64,000 bases of DNA from an uncultured Anaerolineales bacterium (GTDB lineage: Bacteria > Chloroflexota > Anaerolineae > Anaerolineales > UBA11858): assembly GCA_964629085.1 (NCBI GenBank), contig CAZVPR010000002.1:20428-84427 (forward strand). The letters run 5' to 3'. The position numbers were made by a program, and so were the translations under genes. The notes under the pieces were generated by a model. It ran no database searches. It saw only the letters and a program-made list of their open reading frames with translations, and was not told where the DNA came from. This document shows, piece after piece, positions 58,875-64,000 of the stretch. Position 1 is the first letter of the stretch; every line of letters begins with the position of its first letter.

Positions 58875-59240
58875 CTATTCTTCTAGAATTTCCTCAGTTG
58901 GTTCAGGTTCACCTGATTTGCGGTCAAGCATCTGCATCTGCGAGGCGACAACTTTGGTGAAGTAGCGTGTCTCACCTTCACTTTCAAAACGATCGGTTTG
59001 CAAACGCCCCTCCAGAAAAACCAGGCTGCCTTTCTTGAGATACTGTTGGCAGATTTCTGCTAAACGCCCCCATGCTTCGACGTTGAACCAATCAGTAGCT
59101 TCTTTGTTTTCACCGCTACTCTTCCAGCGACGGTTCACAGCTACACTGAATGCGGAAACTTGCTTTCCTGATGATGTGTAGCGCATTTCGGGGTCTTTCC
59201 CCAAATTACCAATGAGTTGTACACGATTGAGACCAGGCAT
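58875..59240 (-). CDS. ssb: Single-stranded DNA-binding protein
   Basis: 121 aa. OB-fold start LNRVQLIGNLGKDPEMRYT. Short acidic tail ending EEILEE. Confidence 0.85.
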   Translation of the reverse strand: MPGLNRVQLIGNLGKDPEMRYTSSGKQVSAFSVAVNRRWKSSGENKEATDWFNVEAWGRLAEICQQYLKKGSLVFLEGRLQTDRFESEGETRYFTKVVASQMQMLDRKSGEPEPTEEILEE

Positions 59241-59392: not shown

Positions 59393-60040
59393 ATGTACAT
59401 AGCAATCGAAGGTGTAATTGGCGTTGGAAAAACCACACTAGCGCGTTTGTTAAAACCTGCTTTTGAGGCATCGTTATTACTGGAAGTCTTCGAAGAGAAT
59501 CCATTTCTTTCAAATTTCTATATTGATCGCGATCGTTATGCTTTTCAAACGCAGGTTTTCTTTTTGCTCAGTCGATTCCATCAGCAAAACGCTGTCTCGG
59601 GAATGTTAGAGACGAAAAAGAATCTAATCGCCGACTACACTTTCAAGAAAGATGCCTTGTTCGCCAGTATTAACCTCAAGGGGGATGAACTCGACACCTA
59701 TTATCAAGTTCATGAGGCTTTGGCAGAAAAAATCCCTTTGCCAGATTTGATCGTCTATCTTCAAGGTAGCACAGATGTTCTGATGCAGCGGATCGCTCAT
59801 CGCGACCGGCCTTATGAGCGGGGTATGGATGTAGCCTACATTGACGAATTAAATCAGGCCTATGAGAAATACTTTGGTGATGGGTATAATGGACCTAAGA
59901 TACTTATCATCAATACGGATGACCTGAATTACGTAGCAAACCTTGAAGATTTGAAACAGGTTGAAAATCGCATTCGCCAGGCTTTGGAGATAGCTCCATT
60001 TCAAACCACGTTACCCCTAGACCTCAAAAATTATCGCTAG
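59393..60040 (+). CDS. Deoxynucleoside kinase
   Basis: 215 aa. P-loop IEGVIGVGKTT, ENPFLSNFY...YAFQTQVFFLLSR and DRPYER blocks of the dNK/dCK/dGK family. Confidence 0.85.
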   Translation: MYIAIEGVIGVGKTTLARLLKPAFEASLLLEVFEENPFLSNFYIDRDRYAFQTQVFFLLSRFHQQNAVSGMLETKKNLIADYTFKKDALFASINLKGDELDTYYQVHEALAEKIPLPDLIVYLQGSTDVLMQRIAHRDRPYERGMDVAYIDELNQAYEKYFGDGYNGPKILIINTDDLNYVANLEDLKQVENRIRQALEIAPFQTTLPLDLKNYR

Positions 60041-60082: not shown

Positions 60083-61087
60083 ATGCAAATTAATACAGAA
60101 ACTCTCAAGCAATTTGCGAATACAACTGTTGAAAAATATACGCGCGCAAATTTCGACATTATGGCTGCGTATTTGAGGGGTTCGATGGTAATGGGGGATG
60201 ATCCATTTTTGGGAGGAACCACGGATGTTGATCTGGTATTTATCCATTCGGATGCACCTACCACCTCGCGAGAGATTCTGCGCTTGACCGATGAGGTACA
60301 TCTGGATATTGAACACCACGCGCAAAAGGAATATCTGAAAGGCAGAGATTTGAGAGTTGATCCCTGGATGGGTCCGAGTCTGTATAACGCACAAGTTCTT
60401 TTTGACCCTCAGCATTTCCTCGATTTCACCATCGCCACGGTGCGGGGCATGTTCTATCGATCCGATCATATTATCCTGCGCTCCCGGCCACTCCTGGAAG
60501 CAGCGCGTCAACGCTGGTTAGAGATGCAAGAGGCATCCGAGACTACAGATGAAAATCAATTGGATGAATATCTGTTTTGCATCGAAAACACGGCCAATGC
60601 CCTGGCTCTCCTGGTCGGAGAACCGTTGCCGGAACGGCGCATGTTATCCTGGTTTGCTCAACGTGTCGAAATACTCAATCGCGGGGGAATGTATGCTGGG
60701 ATGCTGGGGTTGTTGGGTGCCCCAAAAGTTAAAGTTGATACGCTGAAAGAGTGGATATCGATTTGGGAAAAAACTTTCGATTCAATTTCTGATGACGATC
60801 GGCCTGTTCGAATTCACCCCTATCGAAAGCAATATTATTTGCACGCCTTCAAAGCGATCCTTTTCGGCGATCAGCCCAAAGATGTGCTCTGGCCACTGAT
60901 CCGTTCTTGGGCATCCTTGGCAAAAGAAGTGCAAGACCAGGAGGCACTTACTACCCAATGGATTGATGTTGTCCAACAGTTGGGTCTATCTAATGAAGAA
61001 TTTGGAGAAAGGCTTGCAGGATTGGACGCCTATCTGGATCAGGCAGAAGAGGTCACCGAAATCTGGGCCATGGAAAATGGCGCATAA
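60083..61087 (+). CDS. Hypothetical protein with an N-terminal minimal nucleotidyltransferase-fold motif
   Basis: 334 aa. LRGSMVMGD...TDVDLVFIH fits hG[GS]-x(9-13)-DhDh of Pol-beta-superfamily NTases. The long helical C-terminal part has no motif I recognise. Confidence 0.4.
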   Translation: MQINTETLKQFANTTVEKYTRANFDIMAAYLRGSMVMGDDPFLGGTTDVDLVFIHSDAPTTSREILRLTDEVHLDIEHHAQKEYLKGRDLRVDPWMGPSLYNAQVLFDPQHFLDFTIATVRGMFYRSDHIILRSRPLLEAARQRWLEMQEASETTDENQLDEYLFCIENTANALALLVGEPLPERRMLSWFAQRVEILNRGGMYAGMLGLLGAPKVKVDTLKEWISIWEKTFDSISDDDRPVRIHPYRKQYYLHAFKAILFGDQPKDVLWPLIRSWASLAKEVQDQEALTTQWIDVVQQLGLSNEEFGERLAGLDAYLDQAEEVTEIWAMENGA

Positions 61088-61163
61088 AATAAAGAGGCAA
61101 AACCCTGAAAATTCCTTTCCCCGCAGCAACTACGGGGTACGCCTTTGACGTTCAAGTAGAATA

Positions 61164-61190
61164 AACTGGCCTTAGCTCGGCCAGTTTTTC
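61164..61190. terminator. Bidirectional terminator hairpin between convergent genes
   Basis: AACTGGCC (61164-61171) / GGCCAGTT (61179-61186), loop TTAGCTC, T-run 61185-61189 on +. It abuts the kinase stop codon. Confidence 0.6.
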
Positions 61191-62217
61191 ATTTGGGGAA
61201 AACTCTAGGTAACAACACCTTGAAGGTAGACCCTTTCCCAGGACCAGCAGATTCAGCCCAAATTTCCCCGCCATGTAATTCCACCATCCCCTTGGAAATT
61301 GCCAACCCTAATCCCAAACCTTCATACCGCCGCGTCATGTGGTGCTCGACTTGATAGAACTGGTCAAAGATCCGGTCCAGTTTATCTGAAGGGATGCCTA
61401 TGCCATAGTCCGTAACTGCGATCAGGACATCTTTGTCATCCGGATTCACTTGAATTTTGATCTCACCACCTTTGGGTGAAAACCGGAGTGCGTTATTTAG
61501 TAGTCTCAAGAAAACATTATTTATGCGAGAATCTACTTCCACATACACATCGGATGTCGGCAAATCGAAGTCAATTATATGATTGGTGATAGATTTGGAT
61601 ACTTCATCATGCACACTTTGGATGATCTCTTGAATCAAGAGAACTTTTAAATCTAACTCCGTTGCTCCCGTATACAGCAAATTCATATGGGTCATATCTT
61701 CCAAAAGAGACCTGAGTCGTAAAGCGGCATTCAACAAAGTTTCCGTAATGTCTTTTAGCTCATCATCCACTTCCGCTTTCAGAAAAGTGGCGTATCCCAA
61801 AATCAATCCCAAAGGTGTTCTTAACTCGTGGGATGCCACAGCCAGAAAATCGGCTTTAACTTGATCTGCCTGGCGAATTTTTTGAAGAGATTTGATGTGA
61901 TGAAATGCGATTGCAGTTTGGGTGGCTACAAATGACAGCAGCTTGTCATCTGTCTCTGTGAATTCTCCCTGGTTTTTGTTGAGCACCTGCAGTGTACCAA
62001 CGATTTGATCTTCATAGCGAATAGGGACATCCAAAAAATCCGTCGCCCCACTTTCTGAAATCGAACTGTAGCTCTCCTGCTCATAAAATAACACGCGTAC
62101 GTCACAACACGCAAGCAAATCGCTGGTGTTTTCCTTGACCAATTGAATCAATGATTCGATATTCTTGGCAGAATTCAATTGCTGGCTGATTTCCAAAAGG
62201 CGCTCTATTGCGACCAT
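61189..62217 (-). CDS. Cytoplasmic GAF-domain sensor histidine kinase
   Basis: 342 aa with no TM segment. GAF-like N-terminus, H-box VASHELRTPL, N-box LLNNALRFS, and G-boxes DYGIGI and GLGLAISK. Confidence 0.85.
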   Translation of the reverse strand: MVAIERLLEISQQLNSAKNIESLIQLVKENTSDLLACCDVRVLFYEQESYSSISESGATDFLDVPIRYEDQIVGTLQVLNKNQGEFTETDDKLLSFVATQTAIAFHHIKSLQKIRQADQVKADFLAVASHELRTPLGLILGYATFLKAEVDDELKDITETLLNAALRLRSLLEDMTHMNLLYTGATELDLKVLLIQEIIQSVHDEVSKSITNHIIDFDLPTSDVYVEVDSRINNVFLRLLNNALRFSPKGGEIKIQVNPDDKDVLIAVTDYGIGIPSDKLDRIFDQFYQVEHHMTRRYEGLGLGLAISKGMVELHGGEIWAESAGPGKGSTFKVLLPRVFPK

Positions 62218-62223
62218 AAACCA

Positions 62224-62964
62224 CTACCGCTCAAATCGAGACTCATCCAGGAGGTCGTTATAATCCATTTCTTGCTTGACAATTGCAGATTCACCGTCAT
62301 CCAGCGACTGATAGCGCACTTCCGCTGCTTGCAGATTTTGCGACGATGCTTGCGGCACAATGGCCCACTTGCCACAGTGGGGACAGCGCTAGAGCTTTCC
62401 AACCACTAGATTTGGAGCTAGCATATGCCGCGCATATGGCAACCGGCAGCGCGGGCAAACGGCTCCCCCGGCCAACCCATAATTACCTATAACAAATTCC
62501 TTCTTGCGGCCAATCAATCCACCACCCAAGGTACCCAAGACCGCAATCACGCCAATCACAACAAACACTGGGACAATCAATTTCCCTACACTACTCCAGG
62601 CATCTTCAGCACTGATAAATTCACGTCGAAATTCACTGGAAGATAACGATGATTGATCAGCCCGAAAGCCAACAGCTGAAAAAGTGTGATCGCCAGGTTC
62701 GAAGTCCGCGGTATTGAATTTAAACCGGAAAGGCGGTTGTGTTGAGGTCTGCACCAGTTGCCCGTCAATATAGAATTCGACGCGTACTAAATCGTCGGGA
62801 GACCGTACAACCAGGGAAAAACTGCCCTGAATTTGCCCGGCGGCCGCATACCCGAAATCCTTGTTCAAACCAAGGATCAATGGTTCGGCATCCTCTTGAG
62901 CTGCGCTGGGCGCAAGCAAGAAGAGCAGAAATGCAACCTGGAGAATAGCAAATGTTATTTTCAT
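62224..62964 (-). pseudogene. Type-I membrane protein (Ig-like ectodomain, TM, cytoplasmic CPRC...CPHC zinc ribbon) interrupted by an in-frame TAG at 62389-62391
   Basis: The track ORF 62389..62964 ends ...GAVCPRCRLPYARHMLAPNLVVGKL-TAG. The same frame continues RCPHCGKWAIVPQASSQNLQAAEVRYQSLDDGESAIVKQEMDYNDLLDESRFER to TAG 62224-62226, 6 nt before the kinase ATG. Confidence 0.55.
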
Positions 62965-63040
62965 TGGATTACAATCAGTGAAATAGCGCAGCTACTATTC
63001 TACCCCCAAATTTCAGGTTTTATTGAGCAGTTTTATGGAA

Positions 63041-63067
63041 GGGGCTGAGGCCTTGTGTATCAGCCCC
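63041..63067 (-). terminator. Hairpin just downstream of the ABC-2 permease gene
   Basis: Perfect 8-bp stem GGGGCTGA (63041-63048) / TCAGCCCC (63060-63067), 7 nt after the permease stop. There is no clear U-tract. Confidence 0.45.
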
Positions 63068-63074
63068 TTCACAT

Positions 63075-63869
63075 CTACTTCCAGCGCGTCAGAATCGATT
63101 CGCGTTGGAATAGCTGTGTGGCAAAGGCAAACAAGCCGACGTCCAAAACCAGTAAACCGATCGCCATCCATAGGATGATCTGTTCATTGATGAATATCAA
63201 TCCTGTGGATTGACCCACGAATAAGCCGACCAACGGCAGCACAAAGACAGCTGAGATCTGTTCTGCCACCCGGGGGTCTGTCACCCGAGAAGAAATCATC
63301 ACCGCCAGGCTGACACCGGCCAGGGCTAATAAGGGCCCCACCACAAAGATGGCGCTCAGCCACAAAGGGTCAAACAATTTCCCCAACACCCCCGGGCTGA
63401 CCACCAGGAAACTGGCACCAAGCATGTAGAGAAAGAAACTCAGCCAGGTGGCAATCACTGCCGGGATCGAGGCTGCCAACGCCTTACCAATCAGCAGTTC
63501 CAGCGTGGTAATGGGCGTTGCCAGCAACGGTTCTAACGTGCGAGCTGTCTTTTCCCCAACGATGCTGTAAGACGCAAAAGTAATCGGCACGATCATGGGC
63601 ACCATCATGAACAAGAGCATGAATTGGGAGACAACGAAATACTGCATGCAGCCCTCGCCATCGAGATTGCCACACATCTCCAAGAAATTTGGCGGCAAGT
63701 CCGACATGGACATGGCATCGCTGATATCCCCAGATGACTTGGTGAAGTATAGAATTGCCAGCGGCATAATCGTAAACAACAGCGGCAGAAAGGCTACTGT
63801 GAAAATCACAAAACGGTTTCTAAATACTTCCGCCCATTCTTTTTGAACCAACACCCAAATCTTATCCAT
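63075..63869 (-). CDS. ABC-2 type transporter permease
   Basis: ATG 63869 (MDKIWVLVQKEWAEVFRNRF) is preferred. It overlaps the upstream stop as ATGGATAA. Six hydrophobic helices. Confidence 0.7.
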   Translation of the reverse strand: MDKIWVLVQKEWAEVFRNRFVIFTVAFLPLLFTIMPLAILYFTKSSGDISDAMSMSDLPPNFLEMCGNLDGEGCMQYFVVSQFMLLFMMVPMIVPITFASYSIVGEKTARTLEPLLATPITTLELLIGKALAASIPAVIATWLSFFLYMLGASFLVVSPGVLGKLFDPLWLSAIFVVGPLLALAGVSLAVMISSRVTDPRVAEQISAVFVLPLVGLFVGQSTGLIFINEQIILWMAIGLLVLDVGLFAFATQLFQRESILTRWK

Positions 63870-64000
63870 TATTCTCCGCCTCCGCGGCCTGGTCGACAAG
63901 CCGCAAATAGACATCTTCAAGACGTCTGCGCAGCTCTCCGACAAACTGAATTTCTGCCCCGGCTTCAACTAGGGCCTGCACTAATTGAGGATTACGGGCT
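63862..64000 (-). CDS. C-terminal end of an ABC transporter ATP-binding protein (5' end outside window)
   Basis: The minus-strand frame reads ARNPQLVQALVEAGAEIQFVGELRRRLEDVYLRLVDQAAEAENNG-stop. The LEDVYL tail and coupling to a permease are typical of ABC-2 ATPases. Confidence 0.55.
   Translation of the reverse strand, partial: ARNPQLVQALVEAGAEIQFVGELRRRLEDVYLRLVDQAAEAENNG

Follow-up and report, generated by a model that had tools for sequence, protein, structure and literature searches.

Organization of the locus

We analysed a 64-kb stretch of DNA, referred to here as the window, in which a minus-strand open reading frame of 191 codons (62964..62389) ends in GAVCPRCRLPYARHMLAPNLVVGKL-TAG, with the TAG at 62391-62389. 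This stop lies between two cysteine motifs encoded on the same strand, CPRC (62457-62446) and CPHC (62385-62374). Past the TAG, the frame remains open for 54 codons, RCPHCGKWAIVPQASSQNLQAAEVRYQSLDDGESAIVKQEMDYNDLLDESRFER, up to another TAG at 62226-62224, and the sequence context around the premature stop reads GGAAAGCTC-TAG-CGCTGTCCC. The tail residues, which correspond to codons 193-246, are RCPHCGKW...DESRFER. The ATG of a histidine kinase gene (62217) is found 6 nt beyond the TAG at 62226-62224 and shares its frame with the interrupted gene, which we denote the Ig/Zn gene. The features of the locus are as follows.

62389..62964, minus strand: truncated allele of an Ig/Zn-ribbon membrane protein gene, 191 codons plus TAG, assigned from the sequence, a Big_7 match and an AlphaFold2 model; the exact 191-aa product is present in public assemblies (P0002)
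62964-62896, minus strand: signal-peptide-like helix, codons 1-23 (approximate)
62880-62617, minus strand: Big_7 Ig-like domain, codons 29-116 (approximate)
62610-62503, minus strand: predicted transmembrane (TM) helix, codons 119-154 (approximate)
62457-62446, minus strand: putative first zinc knuckle, CPRC, codons 170-173
62389..62391, minus strand: premature amber TAG, codon 192, derived from an ancestral CAG (Gln) through a C>T SNP at 62391 (base of the minus strand)
62227..62388, minus strand: orphaned 54 codons (193-246), identical to the intact allele, with the CPHC knuckle (62385-62374), the predicted last beta-hairpin and two helices, and the conserved C-terminal DESRFE-type motif
62224..62226, minus strand: original stop TAG of the 246-codon gene; orthologues terminate at the equivalent position
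61189..62217, minus strand: soluble histidine kinase, 342 aa, with a remnant GAF domain, HisKA and HATPase_c (Pfam)
61163..61187: terminator-like hairpin between the kinase stop and a convergent 334-aa ORF, called on both strands, with a T-rich tail that is clear on the plus strand only
63075..63869, minus strand: ABC-2 permease, 264 aa (ABC2_membrane families), closing a YhfC / ABC ATPase / ABC-2 permease block
63862-64000: region overlapped by the ABC ATPase gene, whose start lies past the end of the window

From base composition alone, a run of 54 stop-free codons would be expected by chance with P ~0.08. Taken by itself the open frame is weak evidence for a coding sequence, and it is homology, as judged from sequence comparison, that we regard as decisive.

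The interrupted gene belongs to a conserved family

The search for homologues of the readthrough product, that is, the protein that would be made if the TAG were passed over, returned 369 proteins, and nearly all of the 120 that were listed are 243-260 aa long (~246). The peptide encoded downstream of the TAG aligns to this family, which agrees with the initial annotation in its claim that the stop separates two CxxC knuckles and is followed by a protein-like sequence. The named homologues come from metagenome-assembled genomes of Anaerolineales or other Chloroflexota. Relatives are encoded in 268 species-representative genomes, and the best 80 loci all belong to Anaerolineales/Chloroflexota. 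Many of these 80 loci derive from marine anoxic settings, judging by isolate names. Only two entries of 191 aa are present among the listed homologues: P0002, which is the product of the TAG allele, and P0121, which differs from it by one residue.

Nine residues are invariant in the family alignments (C170, C173, C194, H196, C197, K199, L211, E215 and R243), and they include the four cysteines of the two knuckles. The pattern CxxC-x20-CxHC, with a spacer of exactly 20 residues, was found at 71 of 72 loci, the exception having CPFC as its second knuckle. The N-terminal half of the protein matches Big_7 (PF17957) with E = 5.9e-8 and 33.7 bits, against a gathering score of 24.1. We built an AlphaFold2 model on family alignment A2, and obtained a mean pLDDT of 84. 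The model predicts a hydrophobic helix at the N-terminus (residues 2-16), a beta-sandwich (29-116, pLDDT above 90) and a long TM helix (119-154). These are followed by two beta-hairpins (167-169/176-178 and 189-193/200-203) that have the CxxC motifs in their turns (pLDDT 82-90), and then by helices at 208-222 and 226-243. Codon 192, the site of the TAG, falls within the predicted strand 189-193.

In the model, the layout of hairpins and CxxC motifs is that of a zinc ribbon. No curated zinc-ribbon model in Pfam or NCBIfam matched at threshold; the best matches were DUF7479 (E = 0.018), DUF7575, zf-ChsH2 and Zn_ribbon_8, all of them far below their gathering scores. A PDB profile search gave, for the ribbon, marginal matches to Nop10 and an HVO_2753-like protein (E = 0.19-0.87) and, for the ectodomain, the Fn3-like modules of CbhA (E = 4e-11). 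When the full model was submitted to Foldseek, only Ig/Fn3-like structures were matched (CbhA Fn3-like modules, E = 7e-6), and the small ribbon was left unmatched. Some family members are annotated as RpoP/RPC12 by JGI.

The positive-inside rule is used to assign membrane topology, and the RKK cluster that follows the TM helix would by this rule place the predicted ribbon in the cytoplasm, within a tail of residues 155-246. From sequence and model, the full-length protein, normally of 246 aa, is thus predicted to cross the membrane once: a signal peptide and an extracytoplasmic Big_7 domain precede the TM helix, and a putative four-Cys zinc ribbon (CPxC-x20-CPHC) follows it on the cytoplasmic side, ahead of a helical acidic tail. 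The architecture read from the DNA in the initial annotation (signal peptide, Ig-like domain, TM segment and four-Cys zinc ribbon) is therefore upheld by the Pfam match to Big_7 and by the AlphaFold2 model. The family is uncharacterised, yet its members already carry a generic annotation as Ig-like domain-containing proteins. A by-product of this analysis is the definition of an uncharacterised, Anaerolineales-wide family that would combine Big_7, a TM helix and a zinc ribbon with an exact 20-residue spacer.

Origin of the premature stop

If the 191-aa protein were the normal form of the gene, orthologues should end at the same position and be followed by divergent, stop-rich sequence. The opposite was found. 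At the position of the TAG, the five closest relatives among the listed homologues have Gln, and the comparison of orthologues that the initial annotation had proposed turned up a sense codon at this site in all 58 motif-bearing species-level loci (E in 30, Q in 11, S in 6, L in 5, and A, V and D in 2 each; stop in 0/58). A premature stop anywhere in the gene was likewise absent from the species-level loci (0/78). In the nearest kin, the codon at the site is CAG (L005 and L087) or CAA (L090).

The 90%-identity cluster that contains P0002 includes a 246-aa protein, P0122, which is the readthrough product with Q192 and is otherwise identical to it. P0122 is encoded on a contig from another JGI sample, JGI 3300009314 (locus L005). 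Over 4,777 aligned bases, L005 and the window differ at two positions only: 62391 (C/T), which makes the difference between CAG and TAG, and 60868 (GGC/GGT), which is synonymous. The TAG form was found on 14 contigs, plus one that has an additional N84K substitution (L006). The sources of these contigs are JGI 3300009128, JGI 3300007511, ENA ERZ23498639, ENA ERZ23499048, Logan SRR8062320 and NCBI, with SAMN10231914 and SAMN10231892 also among the source samples. Over overlapping stretches, the four P0002 loci are 100% identical to the window, and L006 is 99.9% identical. The TAG allele is thus on 15 contigs and the CAG allele on 1, and TAG is the consensus in most assemblies of the population, although contig counts are not allele frequencies: some of the assemblies could have been built from one and the same set of reads, and the samples themselves may be related.

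We also compared the tail with its two nearest relatives, and obtained dN/dS values of 0.16-0.23, against 0.15 for an intact-versus-intact control. The tail was coding until essentially now, and the mutation is young enough for the rest of the gene to be unchanged relative to the CAG allele. Altogether, the data show both the identity and the age of the allele: the window carries a very recent CAG>TAG nonsense SNP which segregates in a near-clonal population and truncates a conserved 246-aa protein at residue 191. We consider this explanation as a whole, with the consequences predicted below, highly probable. A very recent nonsense mutation had been among the possibilities listed in the initial annotation, and the existence of L005, with CAG in a gene that is otherwise identical, bears it out.

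Could the genome truly encode CAG, with TAG being the artefact of one assembly? The L005 assembly does have CAG in otherwise nearly identical sequence, and a sequencing or assembly error had been suggested in the initial annotation. However, the 191-aa product is encoded on 14 contigs, with the one variant in addition, and the samples or runs behind them, in JGI, ENA, Logan and NCBI, have at least five different accessions. The site itself (GCTC[T/C]AGCG) contains no homopolymer, and the haplotypes are also distinguished by a second, synonymous SNP, as expected of real strain variation. The TAG is a real single-nucleotide variant with assembly-level support, and random sequencing error is excluded; we give next to no credence to an artefact of a single assembly.

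The case described here is an ordinary nascent pseudogene or hypomorphic allele. It has in common with other nascent pseudogenes and segregating nonsense polymorphisms a single-base premature stop, an intact downstream frame and the coexistence of both alleles. There is no difference in kind, and the one unusual point is that most assemblies have the truncating allele as their consensus. Among the other family members that appeared truncated, we found no second nonsense case: in P0019 and P0057 nothing but the N-terminus is missing and the ribbon is present, and P0079 and P0111 end early. A scan of a metagenome collection with an exact 35-mer gave zero matches to the population. A degenerate 20-mer gave 37 matches in the same collection, of which only 5 were to family members, all from other species and all with Gln at the site; the source population was absent from this collection. 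A search of the literature for the sample accessions found none.

These results bear on how the locus should be annotated. The 191-aa ORF and a 44-aa ORF (62224-62358) that a gene caller predicts downstream of it are two fragments of one 246-codon gene, and the proper flag for this gene is that of a disrupted allele, rather than of a recoding event. The open frame 3' of the stop is no basis for reading it as evidence of readthrough.

Possible readthrough of the TAG allele and selection on it

We next considered the alternatives in which the TAG is more than a recent loss of function. The predominance of the TAG allele could come from hitch-hiking, from neutrality, from selection for loss, or from functional suppression. 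In the last of these, UAG would be decoded, by a suppressor tRNA, as pyrrolysine or through a context-dependent leak, to yield either full-length protein or both forms, short and long, in regulated proportions. The family-like, intact sequence of the downstream 54 codons and the predominance of TAG among assemblies are compatible with this, as is the base that follows the stop: it is C, and UAG followed by C has been reported as a weak terminator context in E. coli. Yet the youth of the mutation fully accounts for the intact tail. Moreover, TAG is a regular stop codon in this DNA, ending 17 of the 66 ORFs of at least 150 aa in the window, the neighbouring permease gene and the full-length Ig/Zn gene itself among them. 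A stop at the site was seen neither in the 78 species-level orthologues nor among the listed protein matches of ~246 aa, and the residue at the site varies across the family, as it would not at a pyrrolysine or selenocysteine site. No tRNA gene, and hence no suppressor tRNA, was found in the 64-kb window, and the RNA 3' of the stop showed no unusual structure (z = +0.36). The local stop-codon readthrough that the initial annotation had raised thus found no positive support, and we judge any decoding of this UAG that matters to the protein to be very unlikely.

The resemblance to amber recoding (pyrrolysine) or programmed readthrough is that conserved coding sequence continues past an in-frame UAG. 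Unlike in those systems, the site is occupied by a variable, ordinary residue in relatives, TAG serves as a regular stop in the window and a CAG allele exists; the window also has no tRNA gene, and no structural element was found 3' of the stop. Two broader versions were rejected. Global reassignment of TAG is ruled out by the 17 of 66 long ORFs in the window that end in it. A designed readthrough fusion of the Ig/Zn protein to the kinase does not fit the distant relatives, in which the gap between the two genes is mostly not a multiple of three and the Ig/Zn stop is usually TGA.

A low-level, near-cognate leak at the UAG may nevertheless occur. Near-cognate readthrough of UAG in other bacteria often inserts Gln, and Gln insertion would here restore the wild-type protein. 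One can then imagine that leakiness of UAG-C is what maintains the amber allele at high frequency: mostly the tail-less Ig/TM form would be made, along with a little full-length protein through Gln-tRNA, and this would retune the output of the ABC-2-linked module and of the coupled kinase. We regard this scenario as extremely unlikely. If it were true, the leaky amber allele would be a natural population-level "dimmer" allele that works through stop-codon leak in an uncultured Chloroflexota lineage.

An adaptive truncation differs from the recent nonsense mutation that we favour in its selective reading only: loss of the cytoplasmic module would be beneficial in this habitat, and the TAG allele would be sweeping. 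TAG is the consensus (15 contigs vs 1). The adjacent kinase has degenerated in this clade and is gone from the sister lineage, a hint that selection on the locus may have been relaxed or be changing. However, contig counts do not measure allele frequencies, and the samples may be related. The 4.8 kb compared contain just two SNPs, and in a near-clonal population drift or hitch-hiking gives the same pattern. The gene is also intact in all 78 species-level relatives examined. For these reasons we hold an adaptive sweep to be quite unlikely. As a separate observation, the presence of TAG on 15 contigs vs 1 is more than would be expected of a strongly deleterious mutation.

Genomic context of the Ig/Zn gene

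When we examined the genomic contexts of the best 80 species-level loci, we found that the Ig/Zn gene directly follows a same-strand ABC-2 permease gene in 74 of the 76 that could be tested. In most loci with enough upstream sequence, genes for a membrane protein of the YhfC family and for an ABC ATPase come before the permease gene; in L001, the YhfC and ABC_tran genes are likewise found upstream. By this gene order, the Ig/Zn gene stands at the end of a conserved cluster, yhfC / ABC ATPase / ABC-2 permease / Ig-Zn. A literature search for YhfC together with ABC-2 returned nothing relevant.

The kinase is a less constant neighbour. In 38 of 72 species-level loci, the next gene downstream is an orthologue of it in the same orientation. 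The closest relative of the window's protein (P0001, 79% identity, locus L087) is encoded by an intact Ig/Zn gene whose next neighbour is the convergent 334-aa ORF, the kinase gene being absent. In the next closest (P0003, 73%, locus L090), a 342-aa kinase is found 9 nt downstream, and in more distant relatives the gap between the Ig/Zn gene and the kinase is typically 75-610 nt. The CxxC-x20-CxHC ribbon is kept irrespective of the kinase, being present at 38/38 loci with an adjacent kinase and 33/34 loci without one (the exception being the locus with CPFC as second knuckle). A strict C-terminal acidic-SR(F/Y) pattern was found in 34/38 proteins with the kinase vs 24/34 without it, and most of the exceptions are close variants.

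The kinase itself is 342 aa long in the window's clade, vs 409-433 aa in all but one of the other orthologues. Aligned with orthologues of 412 aa, it has a shorter N-terminus and is missing ~50 residues of the GAF core. This deletion agrees with the Pfam result, in which only the last third of the GAF model was matched.

Several features bear on how the kinase gene is expressed. The 25 nt that precede its ATG contain no obvious Shine-Dalgarno sequence. When the 110-nt gap ahead of the Ig/Zn gene was scanned for promoters, no coding-strand site was found, and totals were at the level of shuffled sequence. The terminator-like hairpin at 61163-61187, which likely marks the end of the transcription unit, is located only after the kinase gene, and the kinase is probably co-transcribed with the Ig/Zn gene. 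Because the gap is 6 nt and no Shine-Dalgarno sequence is obvious, translation of the kinase is probably coupled to that of the full-length Ig/Zn gene as well.

This arrangement is the basis for a further reading of the locus, in which the Ig/Zn protein would sense at the membrane and use its ribbon tail to signal to the TM-less GAF kinase, and the truncation would uncouple a two-protein sensor. The start of the kinase gene 6 nt past the full-length stop (9 nt in L090), the lack of a promoter-like coding-strand site in the scanned region, the position of the hairpin and the adjacency of the two genes in 38/72 species all speak for this reading. But the other 34 of the 72 species have no adjacent kinase, and 33 of these keep the ribbon, nearly all with a recognisable C-terminal motif, either strict or slightly variant; the closest relative has an intact Ig/Zn gene and no kinase; the gap to the kinase is 75-610 nt in more distant relatives; and the kinase in the window's clade has lost ~50 residues of its GAF core. 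The ABC-2 block adjoins the gene in 74/76 loci, which makes the transporter the better candidate for a partner. The initial annotation had viewed the Ig/Zn protein as a membrane-sensing partner of the GAF kinase, a view that the partial adjacency, the absence of the kinase in the closest relative and the retention of the ribbon regardless of it leave poorly supported. We therefore think that a two-protein sensor of this kind is unlikely. The better-supported reading of the gene order is that the Ig/Zn protein would function with the ABC-2 transporter cluster, with the kinase as an optional addition.

Predicted consequences of the truncation

A C>T transition at codon 192 has converted CAG (Gln) to TAG. 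The product now stops just short of the second CxxC knuckle and lacks the last hairpin together with the two helices and the C-terminal motif. The exported Ig domain and the membrane anchor could still be made. Because two of the four invariant cysteines and the conserved tail are gone, the truncated cytoplasmic module would have no four-ligand zinc site, and we infer that its function is lost or strongly reduced. Ribosomes would in addition halt 165 nt ahead of the kinase ATG, as opposed to the former 6 nt. Translational coupling to the kinase is therefore probably weakened, and a polar effect is plausible. The intact and the tail-less forms make up a natural allele pair, and this pair is a possible tool for asking what the cytoplasmic ribbon does, should the organism or metatranscriptomes of it come within reach.

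Comparison with known systems

Transporter-linked signalling modules and single-pass accessory proteins of kinases include BceAB-BceS, YycH/YycI with WalK, and LiaF with LiaS. The Ig/Zn loci are like these in that, in about half of the species, they combine an ABC transporter and a single-pass protein with a kinase that has no membrane sensor of its own. They differ in that there is no sequence relationship to any of these systems, in that the transporter is of the ABC-2 type and accompanied by a YhfC-family protein, in that no response regulator was seen among the adjacent genes, and in that the kinase is dispensable across the family.

The predicted ribbon shares with the zinc-ribbon fold of Nop10, of HVO_2753-type small zinc-finger proteins and of RpoP/RPC12-type proteins the two CxxC knuckles in hairpin turns and the four invariant cysteines. 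Unlike in these, it would form the cytoplasmic tail of a single-pass membrane protein, and it is followed by two predicted helices and an acidic-SRF(E/D) C-terminus. The Big_7 ectodomain resembles the Fn3-like modules of CbhA from Clostridium thermocellum (PDB 3pe9 and 3pdd) both by sequence profile and by predicted fold. The CbhA modules are found in secreted glycoside hydrolases, whereas here a single module appears to be tethered to the membrane and joined to a putative cytoplasmic zinc ribbon.

Genomic context of the Ig/TM/zinc-ribbon gene

Flanking the disrupted gene for the Ig/TM/zinc-ribbon protein are a transporter block upstream and, downstream, a histidine kinase and a convergent ORF with its neighbours. 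The features of the region are as follows.

62964-64000 and beyond (245-3576 in L001, a same-population contig): four-gene block
63038-63070, minus strand: GC-rich hairpin (GAAGGGGCTGA, 11-nt loop, TCAGCCCCTTC), spotted by eye in the sequence
62224-62358, minus strand (e.g. L001 3607-3741): 44-aa ORF with a GTG start (MPQASSQ...SRFER), from gene callers in public assemblies
61189-62217, minus strand: “GAF” histidine kinase, 342 aa, altered especially in codons 1-105 (about 61903-62217)
60083-61087, plus strand: 334-aa ORF
59393-60040, plus strand: deoxynucleoside kinase
58875-59240, minus strand: SSB region

The block runs in the order YhfC-family membrane protein, ABC ATPase, ABC-2 permease and Ig/TM/zinc-ribbon protein, and is present in nearly all of the testable Anaerolineales/Chloroflexota genomes, 76 among loci L007-L086. 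It is a predicted transporter-associated module that is uncharacterised; the cytoplasmic part of its fourth subunit matched no curated family. The 44-aa ORF is just the orphaned C-terminus of that subunit's disrupted gene, an artefact that the nonsense mutation has brought into the annotation.

The hairpin sits directly 3' of the permease stop, inside the 110-nt gap preceding the Ig/TM/zinc-ribbon gene. Because it has no T-run, terminator calling gave no terminator there. A role in RNA stability or processing is possible.

Downstream kinase and convergent ORF

At 62217-62226, the kinase is in frame with the full-length Ig/TM/zinc-ribbon gene, with TAG and two codons between them. The next closest relative (L090) has the same in-frame layout, but with three intervening codons. 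Because the layout is not kept in more distant relatives, the shared reading frame is probably a coincidence.

The kinase is 342 aa long both in the window and in the L090 genome, which encodes P0003, whereas more distant Anaerolineales orthologues are, with one exception, 409-433 aa. When we compared the kinase loci (L012 5757-6995, with a longer kinase, and L090 4748-5776), the alignment showed that the window kinase lacks about 50 residues in mid-GAF relative to the longer orthologues, and is also shorter by about 17 residues at the N-terminus and 7 in the linker helix. The sensory domain of the kinase looks degenerate in the window's clade. At the locus of the closest relative (L087) there is no kinase at all.

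The sole match of the 334-aa ORF was a weak one to Polbeta nucleotidyltransferase (E = 0.012). Beside the deoxynucleoside kinase and SSB, this ORF is conserved at 33-61% identity in many of the genomes considered here.

Other variants in the population

The intact CAG haplotype is set apart at window position 60868 (L005 5097) by a synonymous GGC/GGT difference at Gly262 of the 334-aa ORF. One TAG-bearing contig, which encodes P0121, carries N84K in the Ig domain (window 62713; L006 742).
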